Source of the DNA: Acidimicrobiales bacterium
GTDB taxonomy: Bacteria; Actinomycetota; Acidimicrobiia; Acidimicrobiales; Ilumatobacteraceae
NCBI GenBank assembly: GCA_035719525.1
Contig: DASTFY010000247.1
Span: 1 to 41,431, forward strand
Direction: 5' to 3'
Length of the DNA stretch: 41,431 bases
Part shown: positions 10,532 through 30,070 of the stretch, piece by piece
How positions within the stretch are numbered: the first letter of the stretch is position 1
How the letters are laid out: every line of letters begins with the position of its first letter
The notes under the pieces: generated by a model
What the model saw: the letters and a program-made list of their open reading frames with translations, nothing else
What the model was told of the DNA's origin: nothing
Database searches by the model: none
Translations under genes and position numbers: made by a program

Positions 10532-11191
10532 GTGGACGGGATCCACGACATGGGCGGTACGCAGGGCTGGGGCTCGGTTGGCATCGACCCGGACGAGCCC
10601 GTCTTCCAGGAACCGTGGGAGGCCAAGGCCTTCGCGTTCGGGGCGCTCTCGGCCCGCCTGTCCGGTACCAACCTGGACACGATGCGACACGCCATCGACC
10701 GCCAGCATCCCTACGACTATCTGGTCGACGGCTACTACGGGCGCTGGCTGGGCGCGGTCGAGACGATGCTGGTGGACAGCGGCGTCCTCGCGCCCGGCGC
10801 GGTCGAAGCACGGGCCCGCCGTCTCAGGGGCGAGGACGTGGACGAGCCGCCGGAACCGGTCCTGAACAAGCCGGACTACCAGCCGACGGCGGCGGGGTCG
10901 CTGCGCACGATCGACGTGGAGCCCGCGTACTCCGTCGGCCAACAGGTACGGGCCCGGTCGACGGGCCCCGCCGGCCACACCCGCCTTCCCCGTTACGTCC
11001 GGGGGCGCGTCGGCACGGTCACCGCCGTCCAACCCAGCCAGGTCCTGCCGGACACGAACGCCCACTTCGAGGGTGAGAACGCGCAGCCGGTCTACGCGGT
11101 CGCGTTCGACTCGACGGAGCTGTGGGGCCCTGATGCCGAGCCCTTCGTGCTGACCATCGACCTCTACGAGAGCTATCTGGAGACCACATGA
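10532..11191 (+). CDS. nthB: nitrile hydratase beta subunit
   Basis: MDGIHDMGG...[14 protein letters not shown]...YYGRWL is a typical NHase beta N-terminus. ATGA overlap with the alpha subunit gene. Confidence 0.9.
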
Positions 11192-11787
11192 CCGCCGAGC
11201 CCCGGGCCGAGGAGTTCCCTGGCCCCGCCCTTCGCGCCGAGGCCCTGGAGTCCCTCCTGCTGGAGAAGGGGCTCATCGATCCCAAGGTGGTCGATGGGGT
11301 CATCAACCGCTACGTCAACGACGTCGGCCCGATGAACGGTGCCAAGGTCGTGGCCAAGGCCTGGACCGACCCCGAGTACAAGGCGCGGCTCCTCGAGGAC
11401 GGGACGGGATCCATCGCCGAGCTCGGCTTCAGCGGGCCGCAGGGCGAACACGTCATCGTCGTGGAGAACACGCCCGAGGTGCACAACGTGGTGGTGTGCA
11501 CGCTGTGCTCGTGCTACCCGTGGCCGGTGCTGGGCCTCCCGCCAGCGTGGTACAAGGACCCGGCCTACCGGGCCCGCATGGTCCGGGAGCCGAGGGCACT
11601 GCTGGCCGAGATGGGCCTGCCACTGGCCGAAGACGTCGAGATCCGCGTCTGGGACAGCAGCTCCGAAGTCCGCTACTTCGTGCTCCCCGAGCGGCCCGAG
11701 GGCACCGACGGGGCGTCCGAAGAGGACCTGCAGGCGCTGGTGACCCGCGATGCGATGGTCGGCGTCGGGCGGGTACCGGCCCTGTGA
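11188..11787 (+). CDS. nthA: nitrile hydratase alpha subunit, cobalt type
   Basis: Metal-binding claw [10 protein letters not shown]. Thr in CTLCSC and the following Tyr are the Co-type signature (Fe-type is CSLCSCT). Confidence 0.92.
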
Positions 11788-12253
11788 TGTTCGCCTCGCA
11801 ACCGGAGGTGCGGCGACGGCGCGGCCCTGTGACCGGACGACACGCTTGAGCGTCGTGGGCGAGGGCGACCTGCCCGTGGGGCTGGACCTGGACGGCCCGT
11901 CCGCGCCACCGCGGAGCAACGGCGAGCTGGTGTTCAGCCAGCCGTGGGAGAGCCGGGTGTTCGGGATGACCATCGCCCTCCACCAGGCCGGACTGTTCCC
12001 CTGGGACGACTTCAAGGACCAGCTCATCGCCGCCGTCGGCCGCTGGGAGGCGGCGCATCCCGGCGGCGAGGGCTACCGCTACTACGACTGCTGGTTCGAG
12101 GCGCTGCAAGCCCTGCTGGACGAGCGCGCCGTGGTCGCACCGTCGGAGCTGGACGCCCGGGCGCTGACCTTCGCGGGCCGCCCCGCCGGCCACGACCACC
12201 GGCATGACCACGACCATCACGACCACGAGCATCACGACGACGCGCACCGTTGA
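11750..12253 (+). CDS. nitrile hydratase accessory (activator) protein with His-rich C-terminal tail
   Basis: The core, [21 protein letters not shown]...W.DFKDQLI...YYDCWFEAL, resembles the NHase beta N-terminus, as NHase accessory proteins do. Tail is [21 protein letters not shown]. The start is uncertain (11750 overlaps alpha by 38 nt; alternatives are TTG 11846 and GTG 11855). Confidence 0.7.
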
Positions 12254-12268
12254 CCGCGAGCGCCTGAG

Positions 12269-12679
12269 GTGAGCGCGGCGCGCACCAGCGCCACCGTCGA
12301 GGCCCAGGTGATCGACGGCTACCACGCCAAGGTTCGGGTGCGCCAGTTCGAGGCCGAGGTCGACGAGCCGCCGGTTGTCGGCGGCACCGACATGGGCCCG
12401 ATGCCGACGGAATACCTGCTGATGGGGCTGGCGTCGTGCTTCGCGCTGGCCGTGGCGCACGTTGCTCGGCGCGACAGCGTGGAGGTCGGCCCGGTGCGCG
12501 TGAAGGTGGTGGCCACCTACGACGGACCGTCGTTCTCGTCTGTGACCGTCACCGTGCACCTGGAGGAGACGAGTGGGATCGACACCGATGCCCTACTCCA
12601 GAAGGCGCGCCGCGTCTGCTACGTATCGAACACCCTGGCCCGCCGGCCCGAGATCGTCACCCGCCTCGAGCCGGCGTGA
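12269..12679 (+). CDS. OsmC/Ohr-family protein
   Basis: 136 aa. P.EYLLMGLASCF... and ...ARRVCYVSNTL carry the two conserved OsmC cysteines. Confidence 0.8.
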   Translation: MSAARTSATVEAQVIDGYHAKVRVRQFEAEVDEPPVVGGTDMGPMPTEYLLMGLASCFALAVAHVARRDSVEVGPVRVKVVATYDGPSFSSVTVTVHLEETSGIDTDALLQKARRVCYVSNTLARRPEIVTRLEPA

Positions 12680-12697
12680 CCACGTGGGTGACCGTGC

Positions 12698-13186
12698 TCA
12701 GACGGTCCAGGTGTTGATCTGGAACGCGCCGGCCCGCCACGCGGTGAGGGCGGAGTCGAGCACGTCGAGCGGGTGGAAGGCCTTCACACCGGGGATCAGG
12801 TCATCCTCGCGGAAGCCGTAGAGGGCGCCCATGGCGAACCGGCAGGCATAGATCGTCGCGCCCTCCTTCAGCAGGGTCTTGATCTGGTTGTTGATGGCCA
12901 TGTGGCCCGGGAAGGCCTCCGCCCCCACGGCGGGGAAGCCGCGGGTGCCCGAGGCCAGCAGTACGCCCGGCCCGTACAGGACGATGCTGACGTCGAAGCC
13001 CTTGCGCACCAGGCGGGTCGAGGTGAGCAGGTTCACCAGCGCCACCGACCCCTCGTAGGGCACGGTGTGGATGAAGACGAAGGCCTTCTCGCCCGGATTG
13101 GCCTGGATGTCCTCGAAGATCTTCTCTTCGACGTTGAACAGGACTTCGCCTTCGGCCGGGATGGGATTGTTGACGGTTTTCGGCAT
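12698..13186 (-). CDS. DsrE-fold protein, probable MSMEG_0572/Sll0783-family nitrogen-starvation-response protein (Nit1C P1)
   Basis: ATG at 13186 with AAGGAGA RBS. FVFIHTVPYEGSVALVNLLTSTRLVRKGFDVSIVLYGPG...FPGH...IYACRFAMGALYG...PLDVLD. The family call is from remembered sequence similarity plus gene context. Confidence 0.6.
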   Translation of the reverse strand: MPKTVNNPIPAEGEVLFNVEEKIFEDIQANPGEKAFVFIHTVPYEGSVALVNLLTSTRLVRKGFDVSIVLYGPGVLLASGTRGFPAVGAEAFPGHMAINNQIKTLLKEGATIYACRFAMGALYGFREDDLIPGVKAFHPLDVLDSALTAWRAGAFQINTWTV

Positions 13187-13245
13187 GGGTCTCCTTTGCT
13201 GCTCCTTGGTGGTCTGGTGATGTTGGTCGATCTGGTCCTCGCGCC

Positions 13246-13515
13246 TCACACGGCCGGGCCCAGAGGCTTGCGCTCCCTCGGCACCCACGTGCGGCGATGG
13301 CTTCCCGGCATGAGTTGCAGCACCGTCCGGCGCAGACCCCAGGGCAGCCGGCGGTAGATGGGGACGAAGAAGGTGAGGAAGCCGCGGTCCTTGAGCGTCA
13401 CGGGAGGGCTGGGCGCCGGCATGCCGTGCCGGCGGGCAACCCGTTGCTGGGCGGCCACGAGGAGGTAGTGCTCGGCGTTGGCCCGCAGCCAGGCCGGGAA
13501 GCGCACGGCGTTCAC
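13246..13515 (-). CDS. small basic hypothetical protein in the position of MSMEG_0570
   Basis: 89 aa. The GTG start overlaps the stop of the upstream flavoprotein gene (GTGA). Strong GC3 bias in this frame supports coding. Confidence 0.5.
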   Translation of the reverse strand: MNAVRFPAWLRANAEHYLLVAAQQRVARRHGMPAPSPPVTLKDRGFLTFFVPIYRRLPWGLRRTVLQLMPGSHRRTWVPRERKPLGPAV

Positions 13516-14846
13516 TTCGCCAGCCGACCGAGTGCGTTCTGGGCCGCCAAGGCGATGGGCTCGTTGAGCGCGCCGATGGGAGGCGAGTAGACGTTCTCCA
13601 TGAAAGCCAGGTCCTCCAGCGTGATCCCGGTCTTCACCGCCATGGCCAGGAAGTCGGCCCGCTCCTTGATCCCCTCACCGCCGATCATCTGCGCGCCGAT
13701 GAGGCGCAGCGTGCCGGGCTCGGCCAGCAGCTTCACCTTCAGCTTCATGACGCCGGGGAAGTACCGGGCCCGCGAGATGCCCTCGGCCACGCCCAGCACG
13801 TACGGGATGCCGAGCGCGTCGGCGGCCGTCTCGCCGAAGGCCACGCCTCCGATCATGAGGGCGCCGGTCATCAGGCCCCAGGGGATGTAGACCGGCTGGT
13901 AGGTGCGCGATCCCCCTCCGGCGTTGGTGCCCGCCACCTTGCCCTGGGAGTAGGCGTGCGATCCGGTGAGCCCCTGCACGCCGACGTTGGTCACGCCGAG
14001 GGGGATCTCGGTGCAGTCGCCGGCCGCGAAGACCCCCTCCCTGGAGGTGGCCATCCGGTTGTCGACCACCACGCCGCCGGTCGGGCCGAGCACCAGCCCG
14101 GCGGCCTTCGCCAGCGTGTTGTTTGGCACCTTCTTCGTGCACACCACGGCGAGGTCGGCGGCGATGGTGCCGGCCGAGGTCTCCACGGCGCTGATGGCCC
14201 CCTCGCCGGTGAAGGCCGCCAGGCTCACCCCGAAGTGCATGTGGACGCCGGCGTCGGCCCAGGCCTGCTGCACCGGCTCGACGATGTCCGGGTCGGCCAG
14301 GTCGGAAAGGGGCCAGGGGCGGTGATCGATCACGTGGGTCTCGATGCCGCGATGGGCGAGCGCGGTGACCATCTCCAGGCCGAGCGGTGTCGCTTCGACC
14401 ACCACGGCCGTCTTGACGGAGTCGAGCACCGTGTCCCACTCCATGGCCCGGCGGATGTTCTTGACGTAGTAGAGACCTTCCAGGTCACCGCCCGGCACGC
14501 CCGGGTCGGCGTAGTCGAACCCGGTGGCCACGATGAGGCGGTCGAAGCCCACGTCAGCCTGGCCTTCGACGCCGACCTTCCCGGCATCGAGGTCGATCCC
14601 GGTGACCATGGTCTCGTAGCGGATGTCGATCCCCTGGTTGGCGTACTGCTCCTTCGTAGCCAGGAACAGCGACTCGAAGTTGGGGATCTCCTTGCCGTGG
14701 ACGTACGGGATGCCACAGGGGCTGTAGGCCGCGTCCTCGAACTCGGTGAACACGACGACCTCGCCGGCGGGCATGGTCCCCTTGAACGCGCCGGCGGCGC
14801 CGATGCCGGCGGCTCCACCCCCGACGATGACGGTCCTCGTTGCCAC
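13512..14846 (-). CDS. FAD-dependent pyridine nucleotide-disulfide oxidoreductase (NADH oxidase / CoA-disulfide reductase type)
   Basis: VIVGGGAAGIGAAGA dinucleotide fold, and a single redox Cys in YSPCGIPY as in Nox/CoADR enzymes. The likely start is GTG 14846, preceded by GGGGGA; the track ORF extends to 14903. Confidence 0.85.
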   Translation of the reverse strand: MATRTVIVGGGAAGIGAAGAFKGTMPAGEVVVFTEFEDAAYSPCGIPYVHGKEIPNFESLFLATKEQYANQGIDIRYETMVTGIDLDAGKVGVEGQADVGFDRLIVATGFDYADPGVPGGDLEGLYYVKNIRRAMEWDTVLDSVKTAVVVEATPLGLEMVTALAHRGIETHVIDHRPWPLSDLADPDIVEPVQQAWADAGVHMHFGVSLAAFTGEGAISAVETSAGTIAADLAVVCTKKVPNNTLAKAAGLVLGPTGGVVVDNRMATSREGVFAAGDCTEIPLGVTNVGVQGLTGSHAYSQGKVAGTNAGGGSRTYQPVYIPWGLMTGALMIGGVAFGETAADALGIPYVLGVAEGISRARYFPGVMKLKVKLLAEPGTLRLIGAQMIGGEGIKERADFLAMAVKTGITLEDLAFMENVYSPPIGALNEPIALAAQNALGRLAK

Positions 14847-14929
14847 TTGTGATCCCCCGGTGCGATCGAATCGGCGTCGTGTGGAGCCCTTCGGGCCGTT
14901 CACTATCGGCTACATCGTAGACACTTTCC

Positions 14930-14935
14930 TATGAT
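14930..14935 (+). promoter_or_regulatory. candidate -10 hexamer TATGAT for the XRE-cupin regulator (near-leaderless)
   Basis: TATGAT ends 8 nt before the ATG at 14944, within an AT-enriched divergent intergenic region. Confidence 0.3.
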
Positions 14936-14943
14936 GGGTTTTC

Positions 14944-15576
14944 ATGGCCAGGCAGCCGTCCGGCGACGGGGCGGAACCCGCGGAACGCCTCGAGGGTGAG
15001 GGCGCTGGCGGCCTGCAGCAGATCGTCAGCTCAATCGGGCCGAAACTGCGCGAGCTGCGGGTGCAGCGCGGCCTGTCACTCCAACAACTCGCGGACCGGG
15101 CCGACGTCTCGGCCGCCGCCATCCACAAGATCGAGCGATCGGGCATGGTGCCGACCATCACGACGCTGCTGAAGATCGCCGGGGCGCTCAACCGTCCAGT
15201 TTCGTACTTCGTCAACGAGGACCAGACGGAGAACCGGCCAGTGGCCTTCATCCCGGCCGACGCTCGCCGGCCGGTCTTCACCGCCCACCAGGGCATCGAT
15301 CTGGCCGGGATCTCGGGGCCCTACGGCCGGTTCTTCATGGCCGGAGCCGTGTCCGAAGTGCAACCCGGCGCCAACAGCGGCCACCGGCCCATGGAGCACC
15401 CCGGTGAGGAGCTGGTGCTCGTAGTGGAAGGGGTGTTCGAGCTCGACGTGGACGGGGAGCGGTTCACCCTCGGGGAGGGCGACGCCCTCCACTTCCGCAC
15501 GGACCGACCACATCGGTGGCGCAACCCCGGCGAGCTACCCATGAAGGCGATCTGGCTCGCGCTCCGGCCGTTCTGA
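14944..15576 (+). CDS. XRE-family transcriptional regulator with C-terminal cupin sensor domain
   Basis: HTH_3 motif IGPKLRELRVQRGLSLQQLADRADVSAAAIHKIERSGMVP. Cupin motif HPGEELVLVVEGVFEL...GDALHF....PHRW.N. Confidence 0.85.
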   Translation: MARQPSGDGAEPAERLEGEGAGGLQQIVSSIGPKLRELRVQRGLSLQQLADRADVSAAAIHKIERSGMVPTITTLLKIAGALNRPVSYFVNEDQTENRPVAFIPADARRPVFTAHQGIDLAGISGPYGRFFMAGAVSEVQPGANSGHRPMEHPGEELVLVVEGVFELDVDGERFTLGEGDALHFRTDRPHRWRNPGELPMKAIWLALRPF

Positions 15577-15593
15577 CCGACGTCACCACGTGC

Positions 15594-15638
15594 TTGTGTC
15601 GACGATGGCCGCGCTGAGCGCGGCGTGCTCCGACACAA
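15594..15638. repeat. nested palindromic element (TTGTGTCG ... CGACACAA with inner GC hairpin), copy 2
   Basis: Outer arms at 15594-15601 and 15631-15638; inner GCCGCGC-TGA-GCGCGGC. It starts 18 nt after the regulator stop. Confidence 0.7.
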
Positions 15639-15715
15639 ACGACTCCGCCGGCGACGACGGTGGGCAACTCGGCGAGGCGGTGACGGCCGAGGGCTGCGAG
15701 CGCGATCCTTTGTGC

Positions 15716-16123
15716 ATGCGCATCGCCTTTGGCACGGATGAGCGCACCGAGCTGAGCGACCACGTCCGGCGGCTGCTGCTGGAGGGCGGTCACGAGGTAG
15801 AGGAGGCCGGCGACGGTGACCCCTGGCCTGATGTCGGCCGCCGGGTGGGTGAGCTGGTGGCCTCGCAGCGTTGCCAGCGGGGCGTGGTGTGCTGCTGGAC
15901 CGGGACCGGCGTCTCGATGGCGGCCAACAAGGTGCCCGGCGTGCGGGCCGCGCTGTGCACCGACGCCGAGACAGCACGGGGGGCCCGTCGGTGGAACGAC
16001 GCCAACGTGCTGGCCTTCGGTCTGCGACTCACCAGCCCGACCGTGGCGGGCGAGATGATCGAGGCCTTCCTGAAGACGGGGCCCGACGCCGCCGAGGCGG
16101 CCAACATCGCCAAGCTCACCTGA
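15716..16123 (+). CDS. RpiB/LacA/LacB-family sugar-phosphate isomerase
   Basis: ATG at 15716. MRIAFGTDE......CCWTGTGVSMAANKVPGVRAALC.D...A...R.WNDANVLAFG matches the RpiB pattern. Confidence 0.8.
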   Translation: MRIAFGTDERTELSDHVRRLLLEGGHEVEEAGDGDPWPDVGRRVGELVASQRCQRGVVCCWTGTGVSMAANKVPGVRAALCTDAETARGARRWNDANVLAFGLRLTSPTVAGEMIEAFLKTGPDAAEAANIAKLT

Positions 16124-16322
16124 CCCCTGCGACGACGGCCTGCCACACTGCCCGGCGTGGTCGCCGGCGAGCTGCTCCCACACCTACGCCGGGCGCGCCG
16201 CCTTACGGTAAGGGAACTGGTCACGCCGATCGCGCTGAGCACGATCTGGCGTGACCGCTTCAGCCGCTGAGCTGTTGCGGCCGCAAGCCTCCCCCCGAGG
16301 AATCGGCGGCCACAACAGATGG

Positions 16323-17072
16323 TCACGCCATCGGGAGGCGAGCGTGGGTGATGCGGGTCGAGCCGGCGGTGATGTGTCGGAGGCCGAGCCACACTCCGAG
16401 GAGGAGGTCGGCTCCCGAGGTGTGGCCGAGCGCGGCTACCGCCGCCTCGTGTCGCCGGACCGAGGCGCGGTCGCCATCGACGACCGCGGCGAGCAGGCGA
16501 TGAACCGGTTCCACTGCCTGACCGCGAGCCGCCCAGCGGAGGAAGGCCAGCGAGATCGGATGGGTGCGCGCGTGCTCGACACCCCGCAGCTCCTCGCGTG
16601 AGGCCCCGGCCAATGCGAGGACCAGCACCATGCCGGCCAGGACGTCGTCGCCTGATGGGGTGAGCCCAGGCCCCCGACCGCCGAGGCGATCCACGACGGT
16701 CGCCAGCCCGCCCGCCGCGTGCGCAGCCTCTATCTCGTCGACCATCGCGGCCAGCGGGGACGCCGTCCAGCCGTCCAACAGTGCGAACCCGGTCGGGGCG
16801 GCGTGGGCCAGCGCCTCCGCATCGAGGCCCAGCGGGCGCCAGTGCGCCGCGCCGGTCCAGTCCAGGTGGAGCTGCTGGCCCGGCGCCGCCGCTGGTAGCT
16901 CGGCCAGGCGGAGGTGCAGCGGACCCGGCGGCACCGAGGGTCCCACGAGAGCCAGGGTCCCTGCGACGACGTCCACGTAGACGGCCCGGTCGAACGCCGC
17001 CAGCACCCGCCCTTCGGCCCGCGTCGAGCCGAGCGCGAACCAGCCCTCCCCGGCGTCAAGGATCAACGTCAC
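16323..17072 (-). CDS. DUF2877-family protein (YlbF/AllH-like)
   Basis: GRGPGLTPSGDDVLAGMVLV motif. The GTG start at 17072 overlaps the DUF1116 gene by 17 nt. Confidence 0.65.
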   Translation of the reverse strand: MTLILDAGEGWFALGSTRAEGRVLAAFDRAVYVDVVAGTLALVGPSVPPGPLHLRLAELPAAAPGQQLHLDWTGAAHWRPLGLDAEALAHAAPTGFALLDGWTASPLAAMVDEIEAAHAAGGLATVVDRLGGRGPGLTPSGDDVLAGMVLVLALAGASREELRGVEHARTHPISLAFLRWAARGQAVEPVHRLLAAVVDGDRASVRRHEAAVAALGHTSGADLLLGVWLGLRHITAGSTRITHARLPMA

Positions 17073-22202: not shown

Positions 22203-22985
22203 TCAGGATCGGACCGGGATCTGCCGTAGCAGGGCGGACGCCGTGGTGTCGGCCCGCAGCCCGAGGCGGAGCGCCTCCAGCCCCATCGCGTCCCGCGGGG
22301 CCACGTTCGAGAGGTTGACCTGCGATCCGACGTGGTTGACGAACCATGCCTGCTGGTCCTTGCGCGGCGCCTCGAACATCAGCCGCTCCGTCCCGACGCG
22401 CTCCACCAGAGCCTCGACCACGTCCGTTCGGACTCGGCCGTCCGGCCCGTAGATGCCCACGGTGCCGCTCTCGCGTCCCTCCGTGATCACCCAGGTCGCC
22501 CCGGCGTCCAGGTCGGCGAGGGCGAGCTCGACCCAGGCGCCGGCGGTCAGCGCCGGTTGCGGATCCTTGGTGCCGACCTCGGCGATGACGGGCACGCAGC
22601 TTCCGACGCGCCGGATGAGCGCCGCCTTGCGCTCGGCGCCGAGCAGGTCGAGGCCGTCACTCACCTCGAGGAACGGGAACCCGCACTCCAACGCCCATTC
22701 CAAGAACGCGTCGACTCGGTCCTGGAGGGCGGCGATCTCGAGCAGGGTGCCTCCGGGGCAGGGGGCCACGCCATGGCGGCGCAACACCGCGAGCTTGGCC
22801 GCCAGCCGGGGATCGAGGTAGGAGCTGCCCCAGCCGAGCTTCCAGAGATCGATGAAGCCGGCGTTGGTGTCCAGGACGGCGTCCACGTCCTCCACCGGCA
22901 GCCCGCCGTCGATCACGGCGGTGATGCCGTGTGAGCGTGGCTTGGCCGGGCGTTGCTCCAGGTCGAGGAACGTCGGCCGGCCCAT
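22203..22985 (-). CDS. phosphosulfolactate synthase (ComA) family protein
   Basis: 260 aa. KPR..G.T.V.D.G........D.L......IDL.K.GWG.S resembles ComA/(2R)-phospho-3-sulfolactate synthase. First gene of a six-gene coupled operon. Confidence 0.75.
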   Translation of the reverse strand: MGRPTFLDLEQRPAKPRSHGITAVIDGGLPVEDVDAVLDTNAGFIDLWKLGWGSSYLDPRLAAKLAVLRRHGVAPCPGGTLLEIAALQDRVDAFLEWALECGFPFLEVSDGLDLLGAERKAALIRRVGSCVPVIAEVGTKDPQPALTAGAWVELALADLDAGATWVITEGRESGTVGIYGPDGRVRTDVVEALVERVGTERLMFEAPRKDQQAWFVNHVGSQVNLSNVAPRDAMGLEALRLGLRADTTASALLRQIPVRS

Positions 22986-23023: not shown

Positions 23024-24031
23024 ATGCAGGACCACGGCAGCGGCGACCGTGACGACCTGCGCACCATCATCGCCGCCGTGCGCTCCAGCGGGGGCTGGAC
23101 GTCCAAGGCCAGCATCGGCCAGGTCGGCGAGGTGCTCGGTCGCCCGGACTGGTTGACCGGACCGGGGGACGACGGTGCCGTCGTGCGGGCCGGCGACGAC
23201 TCGCTGGTCGTCTGCGGTGAGGCCATCCTGCCCGCGTTCGTCGAGCGGGACCCGTACGGCGCCGGCGTCGCCGCCGTGCTGGCCAACGTCAACGACGTCG
23301 CCGCCATGGGCGCCGTTCCCCTCGCCGTGGTCGACACCCTGGTCGGGGACGACGCCACTTGCCGGGCGGCGCTGGAGGGCATGCGCTTCGCGTCGGCCCT
23401 GTACGACGTGCCGGTGGTGGGCGGGCACCTGACCCGCAGCCCTGACCGCACCGCGCTCTCCGCGTTCGCGCTGGGCCGCTGCCCCGGCCCCGTGCTCTCG
23501 GCCACTCATGTCCGGCCCGGTCACCAACTCGGCCTGCTCGGCTGCCTGGAAGGCACCATGCGGTCCGACTTCCCGTTCTTCCCCTCCTTCGACGAGCGGG
23601 GCGACCGCCTCGCCGGGGACGTCCGCCTGCTGGCGGCGCTGGCCGGGGACGGATCGTGCGTGGCGGCCAAGGACGTGAGCATGGCGGGGCTGCTCGGCAG
23701 CCTGGCGATGCTGCTGGAGCCCACCCGAACCGGTGTCGTCCTCGACCTCGACGACGTTCCCGTTCCCGCTGGAGTCGGGTTGCTCGAGTGGCTGGTGTGC
23801 TTCCCGTGTCTGGTGTTCCTCGTGTGCGGCCCGCCGGCCGAAGCAGCGACGATCGCGACGGCAGCCGAGGACCGCGGCCTGACGTACGCGCCACTCGGCA
23901 CCATCGACGGCAGTGGGGTGGTCGCCCTCCGGCGGGGGGACGAGTCGTCCGAGCTGATCGATCTCCGCTCCGAGGGGATCACCCGGCTGCCACCCCCAAA
24001 CGGGGCCGTCCCCCTCGCTACAGATCGATGA
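23024..24031 (+). CDS. AIR-synthase-related protein, sll0787 family (Nit1C component)
   Basis: PurM-like motifs DDGAVV, AVLANVNDVAAMGA.P, GGH. The size and context match the sll0787/MSMEG_0566 type. Confidence 0.75.
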   Translation: MQDHGSGDRDDLRTIIAAVRSSGGWTSKASIGQVGEVLGRPDWLTGPGDDGAVVRAGDDSLVVCGEAILPAFVERDPYGAGVAAVLANVNDVAAMGAVPLAVVDTLVGDDATCRAALEGMRFASALYDVPVVGGHLTRSPDRTALSAFALGRCPGPVLSATHVRPGHQLGLLGCLEGTMRSDFPFFPSFDERGDRLAGDVRLLAALAGDGSCVAAKDVSMAGLLGSLAMLLEPTRTGVVLDLDDVPVPAGVGLLEWLVCFPCLVFLVCGPPAEAATIATAAEDRGLTYAPLGTIDGSGVVALRRGDESSELIDLRSEGITRLPPPNGAVPLATDR

Positions 24032-24488
24032 CCATCGGCTGGTGCTCCACACCGACGTAGATCTCCCTCGGCCCGTCCGTTCGCCATCCCAGACGTCGGA
24101 AGAAGCCGACGTTGGCCGGCTGGATGTGCGCGACCATGCGCTGCCCGCCCAGGCGGCCCGCCGTGGCGACCGCGAAGCGCACGAGCGGTGCGCCCGTGCT
24201 GTGCCGCCGGTACGCGTGGGCGACGGCCAGGCGATCGCCCTGCCACAGCAGGCTGCTCGGCTCCAGCGGGTAGAGGCGCACTGTCCCGGCCGGTTGGCCG
24301 TCCCACAGGGCCAGCACCTTGAGCGTGGACGGATCGTCGTCATGCCCGTCCCGGTCGTCGGGGTCGAACAGCCCCTGCTCCTCGACGAAGACCTCCGCGC
24401 GGATCCGATGGTGGTGGTGGAGGCTCCATGCGTCGTCAACGAGGCGGCACTCGGCGGCCGGGGCGGCGATCGCCGTCGGCTCAGCCAC
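24018..24488 (-). CDS. GNAT N-acetyltransferase, MSMEG_0567/Sll0786 family (Nit1C component)
   Basis: GTG at 24488 (8-nt overlap with the radical SAM gene). R.EVFVEEQGLF..DDRD..DD, GTVRLYP and ...W.GDRLAV...R....G..LVRFAV..A...G...M.A.IQ..N..FF.RLGW match the family pattern. Confidence 0.75.
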   Translation of the reverse strand: MAEPTAIAAPAAECRLVDDAWSLHHHHRIRAEVFVEEQGLFDPDDRDGHDDDPSTLKVLALWDGQPAGTVRLYPLEPSSLLWQGDRLAVAHAYRRHSTGAPLVRFAVATAGRLGGQRMVAHIQPANVGFFRRLGWRTDGPREIYVGVEHQPMVIDL

Positions 24489-25653
24489 CGGCGACGGCGA
24501 CCGTGGGCTTGCGGCCGATCTGGAGGTGGCGTTCCACCGCGGCCATGGGGGAGCAGGCGTTGCAGCGCGAGCACCCGGCCTTCGCCGTGCCCGAGCCGAT
24601 GCCGCCGCCCTCGAGGTGGGCGGCCACGCGACGGGCGATGCGCTCGACGTCGATCGGGTCGGGGGGCGACCAGTCGGCCATGAGGCTCCCGGCCACCGGC
24701 CGCAGCGGCACGACGAAGGGGTAGACCCCGGCGTCGATGGCGCGCCGGCATCCCTCGACGACGAGGTCGGGATCCTCACCCATGCCAATGATGACGTAGG
24801 TGGTCACCTGGCCCCGGCCGAAGAGCGCCACCGCCCGCTCCCAGGCCTCGAAGTAGCGCGCGATGCCGGTTCGGGCCTTGGCCGGAGCGACCCTTTCCAG
24901 CACGGTCGGGTCGAACGTCTCGACGTGGATGCCGACAGTGTCGGCGCCCAGCGCGTGGACGCGGTCGATGACGTCGAGATCCTCTGGCGGTTCGAACTGC
25001 ACCTCGACCGGCAGACCGCTGGCCTCCTTGACCGCCTGGGCGCACTGCCCGACGTACAGGGCGCCTCGGTCGGGTGCGCGTGTGCTCCCGGTCGTCAGGG
25101 TGACGTCCACGGCGCCATCGAGGTCCCGCGCCGCCACCGCCACCTCGGCGAGTTGGGACGGCGTCTTCTTGGCGATCGTGCGGCCGGAGGCGAGCGACAC
25201 GCCGATACCGCAGAAGGTGCACTGGTCGTCGTTCCCCCAGTAGGCGCAGGTCTGGAGGACGGTGCTGGCCAGCGAGTCGAGGTGGAGGAGCGCGATCTTC
25301 CAGTACGGGACGCCCTCGGCCGTCTCCAGGTCGTAGAAGCGCGGGCGGGGCTGGGTCCGGGCGCCGGCCACCCGGCGGCCGTGCTCGTAGATGGCGACAC
25401 CGCCGACGGGACCATCGCCTCGCGTCTCGTCCCCGCGGAGCTCGAAGGGCGAGTGCAGCGTCCGCTCCGGGTCGGTGTCGAGCGTCAGCGCGAGGTCCTC
25501 CACCCAGATCATGCCGACATCGGACGGCCCGGCTCCACCGCGACGACCCTCGGTGGCCACCGCCACCCTCAGCCCTTCCGACTGCAGCCGGAGGACCACC
25601 GCCGCCAGATCGTCGTGTGCGGGATCCTCGTGTCGGATCATGACCAGCGACAT
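24481..25653 (-). CDS. radical SAM protein, MSMEG_0568 family (Nit1C component)
   Basis: 390 aa. Cys triad C136-x8-C145-x2-C148 (CAYWGNDDQCTFCG), a TIM-barrel-like core and a C-terminal CSRCNAC. ATG lies 3 nt after the upstream stop. Confidence 0.8.
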   Translation of the reverse strand: MSLVMIRHEDPAHDDLAAVVLRLQSEGLRVAVATEGRRGGAGPSDVGMIWVEDLALTLDTDPERTLHSPFELRGDETRGDGPVGGVAIYEHGRRVAGARTQPRPRFYDLETAEGVPYWKIALLHLDSLASTVLQTCAYWGNDDQCTFCGIGVSLASGRTIAKKTPSQLAEVAVAARDLDGAVDVTLTTGSTRAPDRGALYVGQCAQAVKEASGLPVEVQFEPPEDLDVIDRVHALGADTVGIHVETFDPTVLERVAPAKARTGIARYFEAWERAVALFGRGQVTTYVIIGMGEDPDLVVEGCRRAIDAGVYPFVVPLRPVAGSLMADWSPPDPIDVERIARRVAAHLEGGGIGSGTAKAGCSRCNACSPMAAVERHLQIGRKPTVAVAGG

Positions 25654-25656
25654 TTA

Positions 25657-26319
25657 CTATGGGTGATGGCGAGCGTCAACCTCCACACCCCACTCGCCAG
25701 CCAATCGCCGGAGGATCTCGTCCCACCCGCTCCTGTCCCGAGCCACCAACTCGTCGGTCTCCGAGCCCTCGTGGGAGGTCACCTCGCCGGTGTCCAGGTC
25801 GACGTCGACAGGCACCAACCGCCACTGTGGTTCTCCGGTGTCGAGGTCGGGCTCCAGCGTCGTGCGGACCCCACGGGCCAGGCCGAGGTGAACGCGGAGC
25901 TCGGGCACGGTGGACAGGAGTCCGATGGTCGCCGGAGACGCCACATCCACCCACGAGGCACCCGACTCCCGCGCCGCTCCGAACGCCTCGACGCGGCGCT
26001 GCTGGTCCTCTGCCTGGGTGATCTCGCGGTCGCGGGTGGCGCAGGCGGCGGCGACCAGGTCGTCGGGGGCCAGCCCGACGAGCTGCAGGGCACCGAGATC
26101 GAGGCGGGTGAGCGCCTCGGTCGGGTCACGACTGAAGGCCAGCAGGCCCTGGTGATCATGGACGTCCTCGCGCAAGAAGGCCAGCAATCCGCCCACCGCC
26201 TCGATGGCCTGCTGATAGGCCGGCACGCTGATCATGGCCAGGGGGTAGACGCGGGCTTCCGCCGCGCTCCACCGGCCGCGGGCGGCCCCCAGCTCGTGGT
26301 CGGCGGGTGCGGGCGTCAC
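25657..26319 (-). CDS. hypothetical protein, no recognisable family
   Basis: GTG at 26319 with a strong AAGGAGG RBS 5 nt upstream. GC3-biased. First gene of the hyp-rSAM-GNAT operon. Confidence 0.6.
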   Translation of the reverse strand: MTPAPADHELGAARGRWSAAEARVYPLAMISVPAYQQAIEAVGGLLAFLREDVHDHQGLLAFSRDPTEALTRLDLGALQLVGLAPDDLVAAACATRDREITQAEDQQRRVEAFGAARESGASWVDVASPATIGLLSTVPELRVHLGLARGVRTTLEPDLDTGEPQWRLVPVDVDLDTGEVTSHEGSETDELVARDRSGWDEILRRLAGEWGVEVDARHHP

Positions 26320-26351
26320 CGTCCTCCTTCTGCGGAAGTTCCCTCCGGCTG

Positions 26352-26380
26352 TTGACGATCCTACGTTTCATTTCCACTAT
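26352..26380 (+). promoter_or_regulatory. candidate promoter for the carbamate kinase-FdrA-glycosyltransferase operon
   Basis: TTGACG (26352-26357), 17 nt, CACTAT (26375-26380). The GTG start is 11 nt downstream, so the leader is very short or absent. Confidence 0.4.
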
Positions 26381-26391
26381 CCTCAACAAGC

Positions 26392-27360
26392 GTGGGAGGA
26401 CGCGCCGTTGTCGCCCTCGGTGGCAACGCCCTCGTCGGGTCGGGCGAGGCGGGTACGTACCGGGAGCAATGTGCGCGCGCCCGCGCCATGGCCGAGCCCG
26501 TCGCCGGGCTCGTGTCATCGGGCTGGCAGGTGGTCCTCGTCCACGGCAACGGGCCCCAGGTCGGCGCGCTCGCCCTCCAGCAGGAATCGGCTCGCGCCGT
26601 GGTGCCCGGCCAGCCGCTCTTCTCGCTGGTGGCCATGACGCAGGGCGCCACCGGGAGCCTGCTGACCCTCGCGCTGAGGGAGCGGCTCGGCCCGCGGCCA
26701 CCCGTCGTATCCATGGTCACCCATACCATCGTCCACGGCGACGACCCGGCCTTCACGGCGCCGACGAAGCCGATCGGGCCCTTCCTAGACGAGGCAGAGG
26801 CGCGGCAACTCGCGCTCGAACGGGGCTGGACGGTGGTCGACGACTCCGGCCGGGGCTGGCGACGGGTCGTGCCGTCGCCCGAGCCGCTGGGGCTGCTGGA
26901 GTTGGCGACGGTGAGGGCGCTGGTGGAGATCGGCGCGGTCGTCATCGCCAGCGGCGGTGGTGGCATCCCCGTCGTCATGACCGGGCGGGGCTACCGCGGC
27001 ATCGAAGCGGTGGTCGACAAGGATCTGGCCGCGGGACGACTCGCCTCCGATCTCGGCGTCGACGCGCTGGCCATCGTCACCGAGGTGCCCGCCGCCGCCG
27101 TCGACTTCGGCACGCCGGCCGAGCGGCCCCTCGGGGACGTGCCCGTCGGGGAGGCCGAACGGCTTCTGGCGGCCGGGCAGTTCGCCGCCGGGAGCATGGG
27201 CCCGAAGGTCGAGGCGGCCGCCCGGTTCGTCCGCCAAGGCGGCTCGATGGCCGTGATCACCTCCGTCGACCGGCTGCTGGCCACCCTGTCGCCAGGTGCC
27301 GGGCGAGCGCCGACCGGCACCCGGATCCGGCCGGAGGGCCAGCCGGCCCCCGCCGGATGA
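26392..27360 (+). CDS. arcC: carbamate kinase
   Basis: RAVVALGGNAL, VLVHGNGPQVG, KPIGPF, GGGGIPV and VVDKDL are classic carbamate kinase / amino-acid-kinase motifs. Confidence 0.85.
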   Translation: MGGRAVVALGGNALVGSGEAGTYREQCARARAMAEPVAGLVSSGWQVVLVHGNGPQVGALALQQESARAVVPGQPLFSLVAMTQGATGSLLTLALRERLGPRPPVVSMVTHTIVHGDDPAFTAPTKPIGPFLDEAEARQLALERGWTVVDDSGRGWRRVVPSPEPLGLLELATVRALVEIGAVVIASGGGGIPVVMTGRGYRGIEAVVDKDLAAGRLASDLGVDALAIVTEVPAAAVDFGTPAERPLGDVPVGEAERLLAAGQFAAGSMGPKVEAAARFVRQGGSMAVITSVDRLLATLSPGAGRAPTGTRIRPEGQPAPAG

Positions 27361-28910
27361 GCAGCGCGGTGGCCGCCGTCCTCCGCCGCCTCGCCGACAC
27401 CTACGTCGACTCCGTGCTGCTGCTGGCTGCCACCCGCGCCATGCAAGAGGTCGAAGGAGTCACCTGGGCGACGGCGGTCATGGCCACGCCGGCGAACCTC
27501 GAGGCACTCGAAGACCAGGGTGTCACTGGACCAGAGCTCTCAGGCGCCGCCGCCAACGACCTGGTGCTGGCCGTTCGAGCCGGCGACGCGGCCGCGGCCG
27601 ACCGGGCCCTGGATGGCGGGACCTCGGCGGTGCGGGGCCAGCGGTCGGGCGCAGGAGAACCCGGGCCGGTACCAGCGGCGCGGGACCTAGCCTTGGCGGC
27701 TCGGGAGCTGCCGGGGGCCAACATCGCCATCGTCTCGGTGCCGGGCGCCTATGCCGCCCTCGAGGCCCACAAGGCGCTCTCGGCCGGGTTGGACGTATTG
27801 CTGTTCAGCGACAACGTTCCCGTCGATGAGGAAGTCGAGCTGAAGCGGCGCGCCGCCGAGGTCGGCCACCTGGTGATGGGCCCGGGGGCCGGCACGGCCG
27901 TGCTCGGCGGCTGCGGCCTGGGCTTCGCCAACCGCGTGCGGCCCGGCCGAGTCGGGGTGGTGGCGGCCGCCGGCACCGGTGCCCAGGAGGTCATGAGCCT
28001 CCTCGACCAGTGGGGAGAGGGGATCAGTCAGGTCATCGGGGTGGGCGGCCGCGACCTGTCGAGCGCCGTCGGCGGGGCCATGGCGACGTTGGCTGTCCAG
28101 GCGCTCGACGCCGATCCGGCCACCGAGGTCATACTGCTGGTCTCCAAGCCGCCGGCGCCGGACGTGGCCCGACGGGTGGCTTCCGCGGCGGTGGCGACAC
28201 CGCTGGTCGCGGGGATGGTCGGGTGGCCGGCCGGCACCGCCCTGGCCGGCGCGGCCGCCGTCCGCTCGACGCTGGAAGGTGCGGCGCTCAGCACCCTGGA
28301 GGTGCTCGGGCAACCACCACCGCGCCCCGACAGCGCGTTGGCGGCCTCGGTCCGTCGCGCCATCGAACACCTCCCGCCCTCCCGCACGCTGGTACGGGGC
28401 CTCTACTCGGGTGGCACGCTCTGCTACGAGGCGCTGAGCCTGCTCGAGCCGGCGCTGGGACCGGTCTGGTCGAACACGCCGCTCGACCCCCGCTACCGCG
28501 TGCCCGCACCTGCCGATGCGCACGTCTGCCTCGACCTGGGCGAGGAGGAGTACACGCAGGGCCGCCCCCACCCGATGATCGACCCGGAAGCGCGACTCGA
28601 CGAGCTGGAGGCGCTGCGAACGGCCGGGGACGTCGCGGCCGTCGTGCTGGACGTGGTGCTCGGCTACGGGGCCCATCCCGATCCTGCGGCCGTCCTGGCG
28701 CCGGTCTGTGCGGAGCTGACCGGCCCCGGTGGCCCGTGCGTCGTCGTGTACGTGCTGGGCACCGAAGGCGATCCCCAGGGCCTGGCCCGGCAGCGGGCCG
28801 CGTTGGTGGAAGCCGGCTGCATCGTGGCCCCCACCGGCGCACGGGCCGCGCTCGCCGCGGCGGCGATCGCAACCCGGGACCCGATGCTGGTGGAGCAGAC
28901 CGTTCCGTGA
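27357..28910 (+). CDS. FdrA-family protein (AllF-like, succinyl-CoA-synthetase-like fold)
   Basis: ATG at 27357 (ATGA overlap with arcC). YVDSV.LL..............A.MATP.N. at the N-terminus, then NIAIVSVPG.YA and GPG.GTA...........VG.V.A.GTG.QE. Confidence 0.75.
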   Translation: MSSAVAAVLRRLADTYVDSVLLLAATRAMQEVEGVTWATAVMATPANLEALEDQGVTGPELSGAAANDLVLAVRAGDAAAADRALDGGTSAVRGQRSGAGEPGPVPAARDLALAARELPGANIAIVSVPGAYAALEAHKALSAGLDVLLFSDNVPVDEEVELKRRAAEVGHLVMGPGAGTAVLGGCGLGFANRVRPGRVGVVAAAGTGAQEVMSLLDQWGEGISQVIGVGGRDLSSAVGGAMATLAVQALDADPATEVILLVSKPPAPDVARRVASAAVATPLVAGMVGWPAGTALAGAAAVRSTLEGAALSTLEVLGQPPPRPDSALAASVRRAIEHLPPSRTLVRGLYSGGTLCYEALSLLEPALGPVWSNTPLDPRYRVPAPADAHVCLDLGEEEYTQGRPHPMIDPEARLDELEALRTAGDVAAVVLDVVLGYGAHPDPAAVLAPVCAELTGPGGPCVVVYVLGTEGDPQGLARQRAALVEAGCIVAPTGARAALAAAAIATRDPMLVEQTVP

Positions 28911-30070
28911 CGGCGGTCGCGCTCGTCACCTACTCGACCAAGCCGCGGGGCGGCGTCGTGCACACCGTGTGCCTGGGCGAGGCGCTGGTCCGGGAGGGCC
29001 TCGACGTGGAGGTCATCGCGCTCGGGGATCCCGCCGCCGGCTTCTTCCGGCCCGTCGCGGTGCCGCACCGCTTCCTTCCCGCGCCGGCACATCTGGACAC
29101 ACTCGAGGAGCGGGTGATGGCCTCGGTCGACGCGCTGGCCGACGGGCTACGGCGCATGGCCGACGCGGGAGACCTGCCGCCGATCCTCCACACCCAGGAC
29201 TGCATCTCCGCCCGGGCCGCGGTGCGCGTACGCGACGAAGGGATGCCGGTGCGCGTGTTGCGCACCGTGCACCACGTCGACGACTTCACCACACCGGCCC
29301 TGATCGAGTGCCAGCTCCGATCGATCCTCGACCCCGACCGATGCTTCGTGGTCAGCCGGATGTGGCAGCAGCGGTTGTTCGACGAGTACGGCGTCGTCGC
29401 GGAGGTGGTGGGCAACGGGGTGGACGTCGACCGCTTCGCCGCCGCTCCCTCACGCGCTCGCCTGGCGGCCCGGCGCGCCGAGGTCGGGGCGACCGGTCGG
29501 TTCCTCGTCCTGTCCGTCGGCGGCATCGAACCCCGCAAGGGCAGTGACCATCTGGTGCGCTCCTTGGCGCTCCTGGCGGATCGGCTGGACCACCGACCCG
29601 TCCTGGCCGTGGTCGGTGGCCACTCGTTCCAGGATCACCGCGCCTATCGGGAGAACGTGCTGGCGTCACTGCCCGCCCTCGGCTTGGAGCTCGGGCGCGA
29701 TGTCGTGCTCCTCGGTACGGTGCCGGACGGCGACCTGCCGTGCTGGTACCACGCGGCCGACGTCTTCGCCTTCCCGTCCGTGAACGAGGGCTTCGGGCTG
29801 GCGGTGCTGGAAGCGCTGGCCGCCGGAACGCCCACCGTCGTGGCCGATCTGCCCGTCTTCCGGGAGTACCTGACCTACGGGCGCGATGTGCTGGCGGTCC
29901 CGCCCGGCGATGACACCGCCCTCGCCGACGCGCTGCACTGCATCGCCACCGACCCTTCCCTGCGAGGCCGCCTGGCCGGTGCCGGGCGCCAGGTCGCCGC
30001 TCGCTTCACCTGGACCCGCGCCGCCGAACAACACCTGGCCGTCTACCGCTCGCTACCCCCGCTGCCGTAG
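28907..30070 (+). CDS. glycosyltransferase, MSMEG_0565 family (Nit1C component; GT-B/GT4-like)
   Basis: GTG at 28907 (GTGA overlap with fdrA-like). ALVTYSTKPRGGVVHT N-terminus and the C-terminal FPS..EGFGL..LEALA.G.P. Confidence 0.75.
   Translation: MTAVALVTYSTKPRGGVVHTVCLGEALVREGLDVEVIALGDPAAGFFRPVAVPHRFLPAPAHLDTLEERVMASVDALADGLRRMADAGDLPPILHTQDCISARAAVRVRDEGMPVRVLRTVHHVDDFTTPALIECQLRSILDPDRCFVVSRMWQQRLFDEYGVVAEVVGNGVDVDRFAAAPSRARLAARRAEVGATGRFLVLSVGGIEPRKGSDHLVRSLALLADRLDHRPVLAVVGGHSFQDHRAYRENVLASLPALGLELGRDVVLLGTVPDGDLPCWYHAADVFAFPSVNEGFGLAVLEALAAGTPTVVADLPVFREYLTYGRDVLAVPPGDDTALADALHCIATDPSLRGRLAGAGRQVAARFTWTRAAEQHLAVYRSLPPLP

Follow-up and report, generated by a model that had tools for sequence, protein, structure and literature searches.

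The stretch of DNA considered here (41,431 nt, referred to throughout as the window) makes up the whole of contig DASTFY010000247.1 of assembly GCA_035719525.1, belonging to an Acidimicrobiales bacterium (Ilumatobacteraceae) from soil, and has a G+C content of 71%. It carries a Nit1C-type gene cluster next to a cobalt-type (Co-type) nitrile hydratase (NHase) cassette, and the relationship between the two is the subject of this report. The canonical composition of Nit1C clusters was described by Podar in 2005 (PMC1199592), and their function has been open since then despite links to cyanide assimilation, nitrogen starvation, polyhydroxybutyrate accumulation and peroxide resistance. Canonical Nit1C is genetically tied to cyanide assimilation (PMC7815647, PMC11049912), the gpr cluster of M. 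smegmatis confers peroxide resistance and raises the NADPH/NADP ratio (PMC6039565), and Nit1C nitrilases favour α,β-unsaturated nitriles, such as fumaronitrile (PMC11049912). Induction by nitrogen starvation or cyanide, and a role in cyanotrophy or peroxide resistance, are known only for canonical clusters (PMC6039565, PMC7815647). On the Klebsiella plasmid NZ_CP084804, the genes are found in the order P1, nitrilase, radical S-adenosylmethionine (SAM) protein, GNAT, aminoimidazole ribonucleotide (AIR) synthase-like protein, MSMEG_0570 and MSMEG_0569.

Gene models based on codon-position GC content and a listing of open reading frames (ORFs) matched public protein entries exactly, and all the gene coordinates given in an earlier note on this DNA were correct. 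Families were assigned by profile searches against NCBIfam, with its curated bit-score cut-offs, and Pfam; the NCBIfam models for MSMEG_0570, MSMEG_0569 and the Nit6803 nitrilase recognised the canonical proteins used as positive controls. For comparison, one genome per species was selected by P1 similarity alone, yielding 80 loci (L011-L090) with P1 proteins 78-99% identical, onto which all the window proteins were mapped for gene content and order. Most of these loci are from metagenome-assembled genomes (MAGs) of Acidimicrobiia, the rest being from Nonomuraea, Streptosporangium, Asanoa, Nocardioides, Mycolicibacterium, Lapillicoccus, Nanopelagicales, Dormibacterota and one Chloroflexota MAG.

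Nitrile hydratase and Nit1C genes in the window

The NHase cassette, the Nit1C-type genes and the proteins closely associated with them are as follows.

10532-11191, + strand: NHase beta subunit (TIGR03888, 192.3 bits, cut-off 152.2)
11188-11787, + strand: Co-type NHase alpha subunit (TIGR01323, 303.7 bits, cut-off 249.85; VCTLCSCY motif)
11750-12253, + strand: NHase accessory protein (activator), start codon uncertain (TIGR03889, 75.7 bits, cut-off 46; PF21006)
12269-12679, + strand: OsmC/Ohr-like protein with a peroxiredoxin fold, a retained cluster member (PF02566)
12698-13186, - strand: P1/NitB, MSMEG_0572/Sll0783 family, DsrE-like (TIGR04044, 207.6 bits, cut-off 109.85; ATG at 13186, AAGGAG ribosome-binding site)
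13246-13515, - strand: 89-aa protein, always paired with the flavoprotein (no match to any NCBIfam or Pfam family)
13512-14846, - strand: single-Cys flavoprotein of the CoA-disulfide reductase (CoADR)/NADH-oxidase (Nox) type (AYSPCGIPY; best NCBIfam matches to CoADR models, all below cut-off)
23024-24031, + strand: AIR synthase-like protein of the PurM superfamily, a divergent sll0787 relative (TIGR04049 top, 238.5 bits, cut-off 321.3; PF00586, PF02769)
24018-24488, - strand: GNAT of the MSMEG_0567/Sll0786 family (TIGR04045, 100.8 bits, cut-off 68.45)
24481-25653, - strand: radical SAM protein of the MSMEG_0568 family (TIGR04043, 366.6 bits, cut-off 303.7)
25657-26319, - strand: conserved 220-aa protein, encoded at the head of the radical SAM operon (no match to any NCBIfam or Pfam family)
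28907-30070, + strand: GT4 glycosyltransferase of the MSMEG_0565 family (TIGR04047, 363.3 bits, cut-off 259.85)

All three NHase proteins exceed their cut-offs and the alpha subunit has the VCTLCSCY motif, bearing out the complete Co-type operon (beta, alpha, accessory; 10532-12253) that the earlier note had read from the sequence. The solved structures nearest to the alpha subunit are the Co-type NHases 4ob1 and 1ire. The OsmC gene, present in most of the related loci, is convergent with P1, and the two stop codons are indeed only 18 bp apart (12680-12697). No amidase-signature or CN_hydrolase family was matched among the window genes scanned. A gene encoding a CbtB-like cobalt-transporter subunit (PF09489; 35569-35778, + strand) lies about 23 kb from the Co-type NHase; in at least one related contig, L094, both CbtA and CbtB are encoded here, but only CbtB in the window and L095.

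P1, the GNAT, the radical SAM protein and the glycosyltransferase all pass the NCBIfam cut-offs for the Nit1C families to which the earlier note had assigned them. That note had also envisaged that P1, the small protein and the flavoprotein might fall below the Nit1C thresholds; P1 lies above its own, whereas the other two match no Nit1C family. The 89-aa protein does occupy the position of MSMEG_0570, its stop codon being separated from the P1 start by the predicted 59-bp gap (13187-13245), but it does not belong to that family: it has no match to TIGR04042 (MSMEG_0570/NitG) at E≤0.01 (control 117.5 bits, cut-off 79.85) and a BLASTP E value of 0.3 against the Klebsiella MSMEG_0570. Homologues of this protein (42-76% identical) are found in nearly all 80 loci. 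For the flavoprotein, TIGR04046 (MSMEG_0569/NitH) is not among the best 25 NCBIfam matches (control 640 bits, cut-off 498), there is no BLASTP similarity to the Klebsiella MSMEG_0569, and 6ruz, 8a56 and CoADRs are the closest PDB entries. The earlier identification of a Nox/CoADR-type protein in place of MSMEG_0569, and with it the idea that a second component has been swapped, thus holds. The sll0787 model is the best match of the AIR synthase-like protein, as proposed, but the score remains under the cut-off, and the Methylocystis control scores 459 bits. The radical SAM gene is preceded by an ORF homologous to that for the 220-aa protein in Nonomuraea, among others, and Methylocystis has a weak homologue (29% identical).

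The absence of a nitrilase or other CN-hydrolase from the window, another claim of the earlier note, was upheld by tblastn with four nitrilase probes: one of the Rhodococcus J1 type (validated against PDB 8uxu and 3wuy), a second derived from the PDB, and the Nit6803-family proteins of Klebsiella and Methylocystis. No match to a TIGR04048-type nitrilase was obtained in the window (best E value 0.13), in five long metagenomic contigs with an identical P1, or in three related contigs extending about 10 kb beyond the right end of the window; none was found across the 80 related loci either. The 220-aa protein, which sits at the nitrilase position before the radical SAM gene, was considered as a nitrilase remnant and rejected: the probes were negative throughout the window, and in Methylocystis the weak homologue coexists with a nitrilase. 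The sole CN-hydrolase seen in related loci is a truncated ORF of L086 (18379-18972, - strand), a locus from a Nanopelagicales MAG that has the NHase as well; this ORF converges with the GNAT gene, shares about 26-28% identity with nitrilases and has a CYD-type active site (PF00795).

Conservation of the linkage between NHase and P1

The NHase beta, alpha and accessory genes lie within the cluster in 62 of the 80 species-level loci (beta subunits 55-82% identical), so the adjacency that the earlier note proposed to check by gene-neighbourhood comparison is conserved. They are co-directional with P1 and directly downstream from it in 42 loci, the NHase-beta alignment beginning about 36-121 bp past the P1 match, and inverted and convergent with P1, as in the window, in 18; in the other two, both from Dormibacterota, they are located elsewhere in the cluster. 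The convergent loci, including the window, form one derived clade on the P1 tree, and the tail-to-tail layout of the window is, therefore, the product of one inversion of an ancestrally co-directional arrangement: a single inversion made the NHase-OsmC module convergent with P1 in this clade. Pairwise distances for NHase beta are correlated with those for the flavoprotein and P1 (Spearman 0.57 and 0.53, respectively; 0.55 for P1 versus flavoprotein). The order flavoprotein-small protein-P1 is retained wherever these genes were detected, in nearly all 80 loci, and the genes recurring across loci are those encoding the xcb-like proteins, AllG/H, FdrA, carbamate kinase, the AIR synthase-like protein, GNAT, radical SAM protein, glycosyltransferase and OsmC.

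In the window, the NHase operon is preceded by a complete kynurenine/3-hydroxyanthranilate operon (4879-10389, + strand) encoding RidA, 3-HAO, an ACMSD-like amidohydrolase, a KMO-like FAD monooxygenase, TDO and kynureninase, which runs into the NHase operon. The adjacency of NHase and P1 might, thus, be incidental, with the NHase belonging to the kynurenine operon or to an independent nitrile-catabolic cassette, and the P1, small protein and flavoprotein genes forming a separate DsrE-CoADR sulfur module. The NHase genes of the window follow kynureninase on the same strand at a distance of 142 bp and converge with P1, stand-alone beta-alpha-accessory cassettes exist beside insertion sequence (IS) elements, and the flavoprotein and small ORF are outside the Nit1C families. 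The synteny survey nevertheless already contradicts this explanation, to which we give hardly any credence. The kynurenine operon occurs only in contigs with an identical P1 and in none of the 80 related loci, so the NHase travels with the cluster and not with that operon, of which it can be ruled out as a part; it stays with P1 in the 62 loci, on the same strand in 42. Moreover, P1 passes the Nit1C cut-off, and the flavoprotein-small protein-P1 set is syntenic with the radical SAM, GNAT, AIR synthase-like and glycosyltransferase genes throughout, and in Methylocystis it is syntenic with a genuine Nit1C nitrilase operon.

An exchangeable hydrolase position

The P1 proteins of canonical plasmid clusters are about 50-57% identical to that of the window (53% for Klebsiella). 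The nearest plasmid P1 proteins (67% identical) are those of the Methylocystis iwaonis plasmids NZ_CP143315 and NZ_AP027143; the cluster of NZ_CP143315 (L092/L093) is located at about 180.6-200.4 kb of the record. This plasmid has a true Nit6803 nitrilase (573 bits, cut-off 502.6) before canonical-type radical SAM, GNAT and AIR synthase genes, and no NHase.

A third type of hydrolase is encountered in the NHase-less loci of Actinobacteria and Dormibacterota, nine of 16 of which carry a well-conserved 288-aa protein of the Amidohydro_2 family (PF04909), often encoded directly upstream of the radical SAM gene (L056, 10489-11337; L076, 11394-12257; L087, 14087-14932; and six other loci). This protein is mostly 72-75% identical across phyla (51% in L069), and its gene never co-occurs with the NHase in the 80 loci. 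Judging by gene content, three unrelated hydrolase types (nitrilase, NHase and Amidohydro_2) fill a single functional slot of a gene set that is otherwise shared, and this is the strongest support available for non-orthologous replacement. The replacement of the nitrilase by an NHase, as the earlier note had it, is, thus, sustained by the linkage in 62 of the 80 loci, the nitrilase-less loci and the Methylocystis sister cluster; its corollary, that the swap required amide handling, is not (see below).

The cassette itself appears to be a generic one. The alpha subunit is as close to those of stand-alone plasmid beta-alpha-accessory cassettes from Streptomyces, Pantoea and Klebsiella (66-74% identical), which adjoin IS elements, as it is to other cluster copies. 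A dedicated NHase clade was accordingly rejected, and these identities are consistent with the capture of a generic NHase cassette by the cluster.

The extended cluster is found mainly in Acidimicrobiia, and also in Nonomuraea, Streptosporangium, Nocardioides, Mycolicibacterium, Lapillicoccus and Dormibacterota. Two loci have labels outside this range: L020, labelled Burkholderiales, has a P1 93% identical to that of the window, as in Acidimicrobiia loci, and L079, labelled Bacillota, has an Amidohydro_2 protein 98% identical to that of the Dormibacterota locus L076. Given these identities, the two labels are likely to be binning errors rather than indications of a broader taxonomic spread.

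Coenzyme M-type and carbamoyl-phosphate genes

Between and around the Nit1C genes lie eight further genes, related to the bacterial coenzyme M (CoM) pathway or to the AllFGH/carbamate kinase system.

16323-17072, - strand: AllH-like protein (DUF2877; PF11392, 82.9 bits)
17056-18489, - strand: AllG-like protein (DUF1116; PF06545, 199.8 bits), kept in relatives
18486-19970, - strand: XcbC-like lyase of the aspartase/fumarase superfamily (NF052535 top, 403.5 bits, below cut-off 575; 35% identical to Xanthobacter Xaut_5068)
19967-21325, - strand: XcbD-like lyase of the aspartase/fumarase superfamily (NF052536, 570.6 bits, below cut-off 600; 46% identical to Xaut_5067)
21310-22194, - strand: XcbA-family protein (DUF7714; NF052538, 326.9 bits, cut-off 150; 43% identical to Xaut_5070)
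22203-22985, - strand: phosphosulfolactate synthase, ComA/XcbB-like (TIGR03849, 230.9 bits, below cut-off 280; 43% identical to Xaut_5069; PF02679 recorded for the same gene on related contigs)
26392-27360, + strand: carbamate kinase (NF009007, 281.8 bits, cut-off 266; TIGR00746, 338.7 bits, below cut-off 358)
27357-28910, + strand: FdrA/AllF-like protein with a CoA-ligase fold (NF004760, 395.6 bits, below cut-off 433; PF00549, PF02629)

XcbABCDE constitute the bacterial CoM pathway of Xanthobacter autotrophicus Py2, in which XcbA is a [2Fe-2S] protein, XcbE is a pyridoxal phosphate (PLP) enzyme and the product of XcbC is sulfoacrylate, an α,β-unsaturated acid (PMC9457059). With the XcbA/B/C/D-like genes included, the conserved unit comprises about 22 genes and is larger than the one recognised in the earlier note. 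In 28 of 33 relatives, the two lyase genes have an XcbE-like gene between them (ACC-deaminase/D-cysteine-desulfhydrase family; NF052537 top, 271 bits, below cut-off 450). This gene is missing from the XcbD/XcbC junction of the window (19967-19970) and from the rest of the window, and is also cleanly missing in L012, L018 and L019. Toward the right of the window, at 35854-38124 (- strand), is a gene encoding a 756-aa protein with a NarI-like membrane domain, a 4Fe-4S dicluster and two CCG domains, an HdrD/DsrK-like heterodisulfide-reductase architecture that is worthy of note in the vicinity of CoM-type genes.

AllFGH is the oxamic transcarbamylase of E. coli, which forms carbamoyl phosphate (PMC11326118). 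The earlier note had suggested that the hydrolase swap, yielding an amide, required downstream handling by such genes and carbamate kinase. This is not supported: AllF/AllG-like genes also accompany the nitrilase in Methylocystis and are present in NHase-less relatives. They go with each of the three slot types, and the NHase-less type has carbamate kinase too; these genes were, therefore, not recruited because the NHase makes an amide. A DJ-1/PfpI-family gene recurs in seven loci (L016, L026, L035, L036, L044, L049 and L081); it is located by the AllH-like end of the cluster in L035 and L044, the two inspected, in both of which it adjoins a conserved ORF of about 140 aa, and just past P1 in L081. 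Two DJ-1/PfpI genes also lie near the plasmid cluster of Methylocystis iwaonis, an alphaproteobacterial methanotroph.

The sulfur-related genes raise the question of whether the cluster is principally a thiol system. It might mainly make or recycle a low-molecular-weight thiol, either CoM or a glycosylated or acylated sulfonate thiol, the slot hydrolase being an accessory maturation or salvage enzyme rather than one for nitrile nitrogen scavenging. The Xcb proteins would make the thiol, the MshA-like GT4, the GNAT, the AIR synthase-like and the radical SAM proteins would elaborate it, the flavoprotein would reduce its disulfide or persulfide, and OsmC would use it against peroxides. The XcbA/B/C/D-like genes are conserved in the cluster, the next-best NCBIfam match of the glycosyltransferase after its own family is the mycothiol enzyme MshA (BshA is also matched), the flavoprotein is closest to CoA-disulfide and CoA-persulfide reductases, P1 is DsrE-like, OsmC is conserved, and the slot admits a non-nitrile enzyme family (Amidohydro_2); the gpr cluster, with its peroxide resistance and higher NADPH/NADP ratio, points the same way (PMC6039565). 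Two of the three slot occupants are, however, dedicated nitrile-hydrolysing enzymes, the canonical cluster is genetically linked with cyanide assimilation (PMC7815647, PMC11049912), and the canonical 7-gene clusters, such as that of the Klebsiella plasmid, have no xcb genes, while the window has no XcbE. On balance, we consider this explanation unlikely.

A different scheme would have cyanide carried on such a thiol. Cyanide would react with the disulfide or persulfide of a CoM-like thiol to give R-S-CN, which the NHase would convert to an S-carbamoyl thiol; phosphorolysis by the AllFGH-like proteins would then release the thiol and carbamoyl phosphate, from which carbamate kinase would produce NH3, CO2 and ATP. 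This is the only scheme using the NHase, Xcb, AllFGH, carbamate kinase and disulfide reductase together. The NHase is homologous to thiocyanate hydrolase, and its alpha subunit also matches the gamma subunit of that enzyme (195.9 bits; PDB 3vyg, 2dd4), although it scores above the cut-off for nitrile hydratase and below that for thiocyanate hydrolase. HypE, an enzyme interconverting S-carbamoyl and S-cyano groups, is a member of the PurM superfamily, as is the AIR synthase-like protein. AllFGH is a carbamoyl-phosphate-forming transcarbamylase (PMC11326118). The route is, nevertheless, a purely chemical proposal, and it leaves the Amidohydro_2 and nitrilase variants and the canonical clusters, with neither xcb nor allFGH, unaccounted for; we judge it very improbable.

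Regulation and intergenic signals

14847-14943: divergent promoter region with the operator-like motif ATAGGAAAGTG (14922-14932), the sole site in the window
14944-15576, + strand: PuuR-like regulator with helix-turn-helix (HTH) and cupin domains (PF01381, PF07883), divergent from the flavoprotein operon

In 68 of the 80 loci, the HTH-cupin regulator, which probably controls the unit, was detected with its gene diverging from that of the flavoprotein. The motif TAG[GC]AAAGT occurs at 19 sites in 1.34 Mb of related loci, 15 of them in the regulator/flavoprotein intergenic region (the clade of the window). It is found upstream of the NHase operon only in L017-L019 (three sites, about 41-44 bp before NHase beta), where it precedes both the flavoprotein operon and the NHase operon, and this repetition hints at co-regulation of the two in that sub-lineage. 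Scans for promoter and terminator consensus sequences did no better than shuffled controls, and neither did folding of the 18-bp OsmC/P1 junction; the motifs common to the intergenic regions of the window were dismissed as ordinary -35/-10 elements. In co-directional loci (for example, L021, L032 and L045, at about 10490-10600), the gap between P1 and NHase beta contains GC-rich perfect inverted repeats without T-tracts, which could act as attenuators or mRNA-stability elements uncoupling expression levels.

Neighbouring genes

An RpiB/LacAB-family gene (15590-16123, + strand) follows the regulator; it is present only in the closest relatives of the window and absent from L011-L090, and is probably an insertion rather than a cluster member. 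The dienelactone hydrolase and F420 enzymes of the window are encoded in none of the 80 loci. By this comparison, they, together with the kynurenine operon and the RpiB-like gene, appear as local neighbours and not as members of the cluster. A cNMP-binding protein (- strand), an OmpR-type winged-helix regulator (38792-39313, + strand) and a P-II nitrogen-regulatory protein (39301-39642, + strand) are encoded within 38216-39642, about 9 kb from the cluster, and are possible nitrogen-signalling neighbours. Genes for a sulfotransferase, an inositol-monophosphatase-family protein and GT4 glycosyltransferases lie toward the right end (34595-35500, - strand, and 39919-41430, + strand); related contigs continue beyond it with a block of sulfotransferases, glycosyltransferases and a Wzy-like polymerase, and the gene content of this block suggests that it is likely to be a sulfated-glycan locus.

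Interpretation

The window probably holds one copy of an extended Nit1C-type cluster of about 22 genes, in which a Co-type NHase fills the exchangeable slot in place of the Nit6803 nitrilase. A nitrile-bearing intermediate or substrate would be hydrated by the NHase to an amide, where the canonical nitrilase would give an acid and ammonia. The Xcb-like enzymes would supply a CoM-type sulfonate or thiol from phosphoenolpyruvate, sulfite and cysteine; the CoADR-like flavoprotein and its small partner, the DsrE-like P1 and OsmC would be responsible for thiol/disulfide or persulfide and peroxide redox reactions; and the AllFGH-like proteins and carbamate kinase would convert a carbamoyl or ureido group, via carbamoyl phosphate, to NH3, CO2 and ATP. 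If it resembles the canonical cluster, which is GlnR- or NtcA-induced and needed for cyanotrophy, the whole unit would scavenge nitrogen and protect against stress; by the same analogy, it probably responds to nitrogen limitation. The preference of Nit1C nitrilases for α,β-unsaturated nitriles is also suggestive, in that it may be related to sulfoacrylate.

Several observations weigh against this interpretation. Nine relatives fill the slot with Amidohydro_2, a family not known to act on nitriles, and the slot may, therefore, not be nitrile-specific. AllF/AllG-like genes accompany every slot type, with carbamate kinase also in NHase-less relatives, and there is no amidase among the conserved cluster genes, which leaves the fate of the amide without explanation. 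The alpha subunit of the NHase is of an ordinary Co-type, with 66-74% identity to stand-alone plasmid NHases, and the window has no counterpart of the XcbE-like PLP gene carried by 28 of 33 relatives. As for expression, the NHase genes of the window are convergent with P1 and have their own promoter-like region, a scan of the window for TAG[GC]AAAGT found no site upstream of these genes, and co-directional loci bear a GC-rich hairpin between P1 and NHase beta.

Full-text literature searches turned up no account of a Nit1C variant that has an NHase and lacks a nitrilase, or of a link between xcb genes and Nit1C. The variant amounts to a natural experiment on an unsolved cluster: it shows that the nitrile-hydrolysing position is swappable and that the flavoprotein and its small partner are swappable as a pair. 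The Nit1C core of many soil Actinomycetota is joined with genes for a CoM-type sulfonate or thiol and with a carbamoyl-phosphate module, which narrows down the chemistry to C-N transformations of a sulfur-linked and carbamoyl-linked kind and widens the known spread of xcb-type genes well past the alkene oxidisers. Nonomuraea (N. sediminis, for example), Streptosporangium and Methylocystis iwaonis are cultured and tractable carriers. A bolder proposal, which we regard as improbable, is that the extended cluster constitutes a previously unrecognised pathway in which a CoM-type sulfonate thiol carries a C-N group, with cyanide, for example, held as an organic thiocyanate, hydrated by the NHase to an S-carbamoyl thiol and passed via the AllFGH-like proteins and carbamate kinase to carbamoyl phosphate, and thence to NH3 and ATP. 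If true, it would give CoM a role outside methanogenesis and alkene oxidation and would explain Nit1C-type clusters, with nitrilase, NHase and Amidohydro_2 as alternative exits.

Comparison with known systems

With the canonical Nit1C clusters (nitBCDEFGH, sll0783-0787, MSMEG_0565-0572 and NZ_CP084804), the window shares P1/NitB, the radical SAM protein and the GNAT as true family members, the MSMEG_0565 glycosyltransferase of some canonical lineages, an AIR synthase-like protein and an ORF of about 90 aa paired with a flavoprotein. Unlike them, it has a Co-type NHase cassette and no Nit6803 nitrilase, its flavoprotein is of the CoADR/Nox type, its small ORF is unrelated to MSMEG_0570 and its AIR synthase-like protein falls below the sll0787 cut-off. 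It also adds about 12 conserved genes: those for the xcbA-D-like and allFGH-like proteins, carbamate kinase, OsmC, the 220-aa protein and the HTH-cupin regulator.

The Methylocystis iwaonis cluster of NZ_CP143315 is a closer counterpart. Identities to the window proteins are 60% for the flavoprotein, 49% for the small protein, 67% for P1, 54% for AllG, 53% for the glycosyltransferase, 56% for FdrA, 49% for the regulator, 41% for OsmC, 47% for ComA, 46% for XcbA, 49% for the XcbD-like and 53% for the XcbC-like protein. Unlike the window, it has a Nit6803 nitrilase, canonical-type radical SAM, GNAT and AIR synthase genes and an XcbE-like PLP gene, and no NHase; no carbamate kinase or AllH was detected in it by homology searches with the window proteins.

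The window resembles XcbABCDE of Xanthobacter Py2 in having XcbA, XcbB/ComA, XcbC and XcbD homologues in one operon. It differs in that XcbC and XcbD are below the NCBIfam exception cut-offs, XcbE is missing, no alkene- or epoxide-related CoM-dependent enzymes are encoded near these genes and the set lies inside a Nit1C-type cluster. Similarly, it encodes FdrA-like, AllG (DUF1116), AllH (DUF2877) and carbamate kinase proteins, like AllFGH and AllK of E. coli, but the genes are divided between two operons, allantoin-pathway genes are absent and FdrA is below its subfamily cut-off. Finally, the cassette has the beta-alpha-activator order and the CTLCSCY metal site of classical Co-type NHase operons (Pseudonocardia thermophila, Rhodococcus and plasmid cassettes), from which it differs in having no adjacent amidase and in being fixed beside the P1 gene of a Nit1C-type cluster across two phyla.

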